A stretch of 64,000 bases of DNA from Vairimorpha necatrix. Taxonomy: Eukaryota. Location: NCBI GenBank assembly GCA_036630325.1, contig CP142732.1, positions 868,001 to 932,000 of the forward strand, read 5' to 3'. The position numbers and the translations under genes were made by a program. The notes under the pieces were generated by a model. That model did no database searches. It saw only the letters and a list, made by a program, of their open reading frames with translations, and had not been told where the DNA came from. Shown piece by piece: positions 43,370 to 44,152 of the stretch. Numbering within the stretch: position 1 is the stretch's first letter; the number at the start of each line of letters is the position of its first letter.

Positions 43370-44152
43370 AGGTGCCCTTGGCCGAGTGGTCGAAGGGATG
43401 TTCTCATTGACCAATGGGCTGGGTTCGAGTCCCAGGGGCACCAAATTGTTTCTACTTTCTATGATGCAGTTGGAACAACTCAGATGATGAAAATGTCCAC
43501 GGTAATCATTAAGTTGATTCAATGAAACTTGTGTGTGTCCAGCCACAAGGGGATTAGCATCTAGTGTAGAAACGCACCTCAAGGCCAAAAAGCAGTATCG
43601 CCCTTTGGTGACTTAATGATACATAAAAGTATCTAATGGGTACGGCCTAGTTGGAGCCCATGGCTGGTGCACTCTAGAGTGGGATCCTAGAGCTAACTAA
43701 GAGACTAGACGAAGTAGGGCAATAGAAGGTCTCGTGGACCCTATCCTACATGATTCTGTAACACGGTGGCCGAAACTAGTGGGAGACTGGTGGTCAACGC
43801 AGTCCAATAAAAATGCCGGGCTGGGGATGTGGTCGTGTAAGGAGCCGTGTGTGCGATACAGATGATTGTAGGGACCTTTGAGTCAGTACGATGATGTCTC
43901 TCCTCGGGTTATAGATAACCATGCCCGTTAAGTATATCCGCTGTGAGGTCACTCTGGACGCGATTTGAGGTATAAATGGAAAGTGTTCTCCTGGAGCCAA
44001 AGTCCAATGGATACGGCGGAGCTTGCTGCACCGGCAAGTTATACGGAGGGAGTTTTAGTGAGTAAGAATCTCACAGTACCAGTTGGAAAAGGATCACACC
44101 CAAATCCCTCTGGTCCCTATGTAAGGTTTCTCCCTACCTCTTACTTGCAAAG

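Follow-up and report, generated by a model that had tools for sequence, protein, structure and literature searches.

A probable tRNA-derived SINE with a pure A24 tail in a compact microsporidian genome

The closest described systems are pairs in which a short interspersed element (SINE) depends on a long interspersed element (LINE). Fungal examples are Mg-SINE with MgL in Magnaporthe and SINE2-1_BG with Tad1-24_BG in Blumeria, and in Entamoeba LINEs of the R4 clade, which are of the RLE type, pair with SINE-like elements (Table 1 of PMC3747384). In that review table, the partner LINEs belong to the L2, CR1, RTE, I, Rex1, Tad1, R4, L1, RandI, and Vingi clades (PMC3747384). For the microsporidian Nosema bombycis, the repeat table gives Dong-R4 as the main LINE class and assigns 0.18% to 'SINE' (PMC3614468, Table 2). 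Surveys of microsporidian transposons cover LTR elements, LINEs, and DNA transposons, and the word SINE is absent from the main text of two dedicated surveys (PMC4202319, PMC7313128). In the main texts of openly accessible papers, our literature search did not turn up any account of a SINE from a microsporidian.

Microsporidia are relatives of fungi, and their genomes serve as models of extreme reduction in which SINEs are barely documented. We analyzed a stretch of 64 kb (hereafter, the window) carrying an 806-bp retroposon. A preliminary description had singled out the last 108 nt before its A-tail as a SINE tail resembling the 3′ ends of arthropod R1-clade LINEs, and had proposed transfer from the host or a hidden partner LINE. 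We consider it likely that this segment is the unique 3′ region of an intact, recent tRNA-derived SINE that resides in the microsporidian genome.

The element and its genomic setting

The window has a GC content of 27.4% and is dense with long intronless ORFs for housekeeping proteins of eukaryotes, including CK2 beta, UFD1, XPA, Ndc80, importin beta, TAF6, TRM1, V-ATPase B, a TAF1-like protein, fibrillarin, and glycerol-3-phosphate dehydrogenase. The best named relatives of the dehydrogenase ORF are all microsporidian (Nosema granulosis, 52% identity; Conglomerata, 45%; Encephalitozoon, 44%). The intronless housekeeping ORFs and these relatives establish that the host of the element is a compact microsporidian genome. 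At the right end of the window, an open frame on the forward strand (62470-64000) continues past the boundary and looks, by eye, like the N-terminal part of the ribonucleotide reductase large subunit.

The element (Table 1) is enclosed by an exact target-site duplication (TSD), with one extra A (43370) between the left repeat and the element start. It opens with a tRNA-like head that ARAGORN folds into a cloverleaf in which the acceptor stem has 7 bp, the T stem has 5 bp, and the anticodon stem is weak; its folding energy of -39.6 kcal/mol (z = -3.80) was equaled by 0 of 200 shuffles. The head contains two segments, TGGCCGAGTGG and GGTTCGAGTCC, which, judged against the Pol III consensus, we take to be the A and B boxes of an internal promoter. 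In a whole-window Rfam scan, the head remained below the tRNA gathering score, and in a scan of 43200-44300 at E <= 10 its sole weak match was to mascRNA, a tRNA-like family (28.6 bits, E = 0.0019). A SINE is expected to carry a degenerate tRNA-like head, unlike a working tRNA gene, and the score below the tRNA threshold therefore makes this head SINE-like rather than a working gene. The window also contains a genuine tRNA gene at 15166-15248 (+), with an Rfam score of 59 bits, which ARAGORN reads as an 83-nt tRNA-Leu(TAG) with a long extra arm and which might alternatively be an intron-containing tRNA; on comparison, it bears no special likeness to the SINE head.

Table 1. Positions of the element, its parts, and its decayed relative within the window
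Feature	Position	Strand	Details
Whole element	43371-44176	+	806 bp retroposon; 782 nt without tail
Left TSD, TACAAATCTGTAAT	43356-43369	.	Exact 14-nt direct repeat of 44177-44190
Right TSD	44177-44190	.	100% identical to 43356-43369
tRNA-like head	43371-43443	+	ARAGORN: tRNA-Met(CAT), 73 nt
A box, TGGCCGAGTGG	43379-43389	+	Presumed internal Pol III promoter; fits consensus
B box, GGTTCGAGTCC	43422-43432	+	Presumed internal Pol III promoter; fits consensus
Non-coding body	43444-44044	+	46% GC
Shared module	43956-44080	+	Cores AAAGTCCAATG and GAGTAA.AATCTCACAGTACC, common to the decayed copy
Flagged tail	44045-44152	+	Last 108 nt; unique 3′ region before the A-tail
GGGAG	44048-44052	+	Closing helix with CTCCC 44130-44134
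Hairpin 1	44058-44074	+	GTGAG 44058-44062, loop TAAGAAT 44063-44069, CTCAC 44070-44074
Hairpin 2	44078-44114	+	ACCAG 44078-44082 pairs with CTGGT 44110-44114
GTCCCTATGTAAGGTTTCTCCCT	44113-44135	+	Includes CTCCC 44130-44134
A24 tail	44153-44176	+	Pure; read from the sequence
AT-decayed partial copy of module 43956-44080	19514-19400	-	BLASTN, nhmmer, local alignment
31-bp tandem repeat, 3.2 copies	19293-19390	-	Tandem Repeats Finder, 98% matches, score 189

The element has no coding capacity. In its body, no stop-to-stop ORF exceeds 86 aa on either strand, and 0 of the 9 ORFs of at least 55 aa that overlap the element have a Pfam match. A search for an internal repeat gave a score of 26, which is not significant against shuffles (22.4 +/- 3.3, max 33), and the hexamer AATAAA is absent from the 30 nt preceding the A-tail. 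An 80-codon open frame runs on the forward strand from the body into the A-tail (43947-44189); it has neither a Pfam match nor relatives and is probably a product of chance.

The element sits in AT-rich intergenic DNA of unique sequence, flanked by a ribosomal P-protein-like ORF (42123-42467) on one side and an ORF at 44794-45948 on the other. The former is a short forward-strand frame that ends in EEEELVEETELNFEDLF and weakly matches the Pfam family Ribosomal_60s (60S acidic ribosomal protein, E = 0.026); it is probably the gene of a P1/P2 stalk protein, 0.9 kb upstream of the SINE. The insertion is young, because the TSD is perfect and the A-tail uninterrupted, and the GC content of the element, 47.5% against 24-26% in its flanks, also counts for youth. 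Integration took place in the parasite nucleus, and the element is not host contamination, since the duplicated target consists of AT-rich DNA of the parasite and microsporidian genes follow on both sides.

The tRNA-like head with its promoter boxes, the non-coding body, the A24 tail, and the 14-bp TSD in combination lead us to read the insertion as a tRNA-derived SINE placed by target-primed reverse transcription, and on the same features the flagged segment is indeed the 3′ end of such an element, as first described. Along this route, Pol III would start at the head through the internal A and B boxes and yield an RNA of ~0.8 kb. A LINE located elsewhere in the genome of the parasite would supply a reverse transcriptase with endonuclease that nicks an AT-rich target, and priming on the A-tail would allow the RNA to be copied into the chromosome, which would leave the 14-bp duplication.

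Several findings count against the SINE reading. First, at 782 nt without its tail, the element would be an unusually long SINE, reaching or exceeding the lengths common in the class. Second, a run of TTTT can terminate Pol III transcription, and the one inside the element near its 3′ end (44053-44056) could stop Pol III before that end is reached. Third, no LINE was detected in the window, the structure of the tail is not significant, and the 64 kb hold one full copy and one fragment that shares only 125 nt with it.

A decayed second copy and the structure of the tail

The fragment lies 24 kb away from the full copy, on the opposite strand. When the element was compared with the window by BLASTN, it produced a single non-poly(A) match (19428-19400, -), which nhmmer extended to 19514-19400 against element positions 43956-44080 (E = 5.7e-4). 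The local alignment score of the two sequences is 74, whereas 200 shuffles gave 28.0 +/- 2.9 with a maximum of 37. The two are identical at 83 of 114 aligned positions, and their differences are strongly directional: the element has G or C where the fragment has A or T at 18 sites, and the reverse holds at 3. The fragment is either an older copy or a diverged relative, and in both cases its sequence has shifted toward the AT-rich composition of the genome. A two-sequence HMM did not find a third copy in the 64-kb window, the next match having an E of 0.72.

Conservation between the two copies is uneven. Best preserved are AAAGTCCAATG and GAGTAA.AATCTCACAGTACC, of which the latter corresponds to the loop and 3′ arm of hairpin 1, inside the flagged tail. 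The stem of that hairpin is lost in the decayed copy, where GTGAG has become AAGAG without a compensating change. The similarity breaks off directly after CTCACAGTACC, and the last 72 nt of the element are missing from the fragment. The shared stretch thus lies upstream of the true 3′ terminus and is therefore not simply the tail recognized by the reverse transcriptase. Because the second copy is AT-decayed, it shows the module at 43956-44080, at least, to be an apparently long-standing resident of this genome; the fragment may also derive from a different element that merely shares the module. Directly 3′ of the decayed copy, in an unusually long intergenic gap (~780 bp), lies the 31-bp tandem repeat of Table 1. 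MAFFT gave no convincing alignment of this repeat to element positions 44081-44152, and each of its units contains AAGTCCA, an echo of the conserved AAAGTCCAATG core.

Relatives were sought beyond the window. In a large protein collection, the 72-aa forward-frame ORF over the tail had no homolog candidate, and the 85-aa reverse-strand ORF over the head and 5′ body had 1 candidate, with none at E <= 10. One apparent relative of the 86-aa reverse-strand ORF, P0121 (E = 4.7e-6, 35% identity over 36 aa in 7 stretches), was rejected as a spurious match to a translated tandem repeat. Bacterial and archaeal genome contigs were scanned with the aim of reaching contaminating eukaryotic contigs: conserved core 1 had 0 exact-pattern matches, and conserved core 2 occurred at 26 loci where ~69 are expected by chance for its 17 specified bases, 0 of the 26 extending past the pattern under nhmmer (E <= 1). 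Rfam contained nothing for the body or the tail, either at the gathering score over the whole window or at E <= 10 over 43200-44300.

The lack of relatives in the protein collections and in the bacterial and archaeal contig scans, the single full-length copy in the window, and the unusual length would all suit a one-off event, in which a tRNA-like Pol III transcript was joined to an unrelated RNA by read-through or template switching and the chimera was reverse-transcribed once by a LINE. We regard such a retrocopy as unlikely, given a head that is a degenerate, SINE-typical promoter module and not a working tRNA, a second homologous fragment on the other strand, and an A-tail with no AATAAA before it.

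Within the SINE reading, the question is what the tail itself contributes. The letters quoted for 44045-44152 in the preliminary description are all present, and the three helices it proposed all appear in the minimum-free-energy fold of the segment. This fold has an energy of -29.7 kcal/mol, shuffles averaged -24.55 (sd 3.1; z = -1.66), and 11 of 200 shuffles were at least as good. When the 108 nt were shuffled by mononucleotide 5000 times, 47% of the shuffles contained one or more perfect 5-bp hairpins with a loop of 3-10 nt; 5-bp inverted repeats at any distance are mildly elevated, numbering 11 where shuffles average 4.9 (P = 0.037). The tail structure is not clearly beyond chance, nor clearly selected. 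Its hairpins may aid template recognition by the reverse transcriptase, or may be incidental.

These shuffle results bear on a second way of reading the same SINE, according to which the stems in 44045-44152 are without function, the partner LINE reads the A-tail only, in the relaxed, L1-like manner, and the tail is uninformative about the clade of that LINE. With a long, pure tail such as A24, recognition of poly(A) alone would suffice, hairpin 1 was not retained in the decayed copy, and relaxed recognition is documented for L1/Alu and for plant L1 (PMC3747384). On the other side, the best-kept stretch GAGTAA.AATCTCACAGTACC falls within the tail and hints at a constraint on primary sequence, and the inverted repeats are mildly enriched. 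Poly(A) ends are also found in elements of the stringent type, of which SART1 is an example (PMC3747384). We judge that a tail read through its A-run only is a possibility to be taken seriously, although it falls somewhat short of an even chance.

The mobilizer and the proposed R1 origin

No reverse transcriptase or endonuclease family was detected by Pfam in the 35 ORFs of at least 150 aa, in the 74 shorter ORFs outside genes (>=55 aa), in the 14 unassigned ORFs (E up to 1), or in 24 X-read-through frames, six for each of four gene-poor spans (51642-54270, 6169-9613, 41627-43370, and 19185-19962). Four further spans (12707-13613, 4325-5694, 2228-3748, and 62470-64000) were covered through their ORFs of at least 55 aa, a Pfam-based coverage that very decayed LINE remnants could escape. 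The RLE-type LINE remnants that had been reported for the window were not reproduced in these ORFs and read-through frames. Because no such signature was found in the window, the partner LINE, if any, lies outside these 64 kb.

Two of the gene-poor spans have features of their own. At 51642-54270, 2.6 kb are free of ORFs of at least 150 aa, which is unusual in so gene-dense a window, and six read-through frames gave no meaningful Pfam match. At 6134-9340 (-), a span of 3.4 kb without an ORF of at least 150 aa carries a chain of nine short reverse-strand ORFs (56-80 aa), which lies immediately downstream of an unassigned ORF of 1030 aa (9614-12706, -). One piece of the chain (7143-7355) weakly matches M-HEAT_ATR (E = 0.0095), and the chain may represent the disrupted 3′ portion, about half, of a large gene of ATR/Mec1 type; Pfam did not find a kinase domain in the six X-read-through frames of 6169-9613.

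The mobilizer had been attributed either to an R1-like LINE elsewhere in the genome or to host machinery. The first half of this proposal holds insofar as no mobilizer is detectable in the window; a TSD made of parasite DNA speaks against the second half. The likeliest mobilizer is a partner LINE in another part of the parasite genome. From the junctions, the nick in the bottom strand would fall at ...TTTGTA/AACAA..., a site that loosely resembles the T-rich/A-rich targets of APE-type endonucleases, a likeness that is weak evidence because the genome has 27% GC. LINEs of the RLE type had been dismissed as candidates, a step undercut by the R4 pairs of Entamoeba (PMC3747384) and by the Dong-R4 elements of N. 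bombycis (PMC3614468). A resident LINE, either R4/Dong-like (RLE) or of the APE type, is more likely than an arthropod R1.

The R1 proposal itself deserves closer scrutiny. R1-clade elements are typically target-specific, inserting into repeated targets such as rDNA or telomeric repeats, and the R1 duplication in 28S rDNA is 14 bp. The preliminary description took insect R1-clade 3′ UTRs and lepidopteran SINE tails to carry TTTTAGT(GG/CA)GTAAGA.T(CC/CTG)ACA, and derived the tail from the 3′ UTR of an arthropod R1-clade LINE, with the SINE arriving by transfer from the host or moved by an unseen LINE of R1 type or by host machinery. Two spellings of that motif and ten strings of the element were absent from all paper texts searched. 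The element entered a unique intergenic site rather than a repeated specific target, and we provisionally treat the agreement of its 14-bp TSD with the R1 duplication length as a coincidence. In favor of the proposal, SART1, an R1-clade element, does require its 3′ UTR and does end in poly(A); against it, the review table contains no R1-clade SINE/LINE pair (PMC3747384). The lepidopteran SINEs described in PMC8010984 measure 252-333 bp and mostly have simple-repeat tails, as opposed to the 782-nt element with its poly(A) end, and one of them has a LINE-like tail.

As to transfer from the host, exchange of transposons between microsporidia and animals is documented (PMC4202319 and PMC3614468), and an element of 47.5% GC that looks young stands out in a genome of 27% GC. 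High GC is nevertheless not specific to foreign DNA, since native GC-rich DNA exists in the window, where the V-ATPase gene region reaches 43-49% GC in 200-nt windows. An element that is young or under constraint may also differ in composition from its surroundings. The AT-shifted decayed copy at 19514-19400 (-) speaks for long residence, and the presence of this older copy nearby makes a one-off recent arrival from the host disfavored, as host-to-parasite transfer is in general. A TSD of parasite sequence moreover points to integration in the parasite nucleus, beyond the reach of host enzymes.

R1 ancestry of the tail is unsupported, as is host transfer, and unlikely a priori, and with the evidence above we hold a derivation from an R1-clade 3′ UTR, by whichever of the three routes, to be highly improbable. 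We attach equally little belief to a SINE family, currently active in the microsporidian, that borrowed its GC-rich 3′ module from an arthropod LINE or received the module together with one. If true, such an origin of the module would make this the first SINE known to cross from a host into its microsporidian parasite, and would make the module a marker of an unseen LINE at work in a highly reduced genome.

Comparison with known systems

Returning to the preferred reading, the presence of an intact, young SINE implies that a LINE reverse transcriptase is functional, and that retroposition driven by Pol III takes place, in a parasite genome packed with genes. Its insertion would serve as a marker for strain typing. 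Both points are modest. TSDs in the teens of base pairs are characteristic of Alu and L1. Against the systems described elsewhere, the element shares individual traits with four groups.

First, the fungal elements Mg-SINE and SINE2-1_BG resemble it in having a tRNA-related Pol III head, a non-coding body, and dependence on a LINE, which for the present element would be a resident one (PMC3747384). The likeness to them is one of description; the host here is a compact microsporidian, and the window holds no partner LINE. Second, the Entamoeba pairs EhLINE/EhSINE and R4-1_ED/EdSINE1 share the setting of an AT-rich parasite genome, in which SINE-like elements are moved by an RLE-type LINE (PMC3747384). 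Their promoter is listed there as unknown, whereas the present element opens with an evident tRNA-like head and ends in A24, and no R4-like LINE was seen in the window. Third, Alu and B1, mobilized by L1 in the relaxed, poly(A)-dependent manner (PMC3747384), have in common with it a long, pure A-tail, an AT-rich target, and a TSD in the teens of base pairs, and its putative nick site is loosely like TTTT/AA; they differ from it in the type of head and in the host. Fourth, SART1, TRAS, and R1Bm are autonomous, target-specific R1-clade LINEs of insects, in contrast to an element inserted at a unique site. The trait in common is the poly(A) end of SART1, next to a required 3′ UTR, and the review table gives none of the three a SINE partner (PMC3747384). 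Measured against these systems, the element is ordinary in kind, and it is the group of its host that is under-described.
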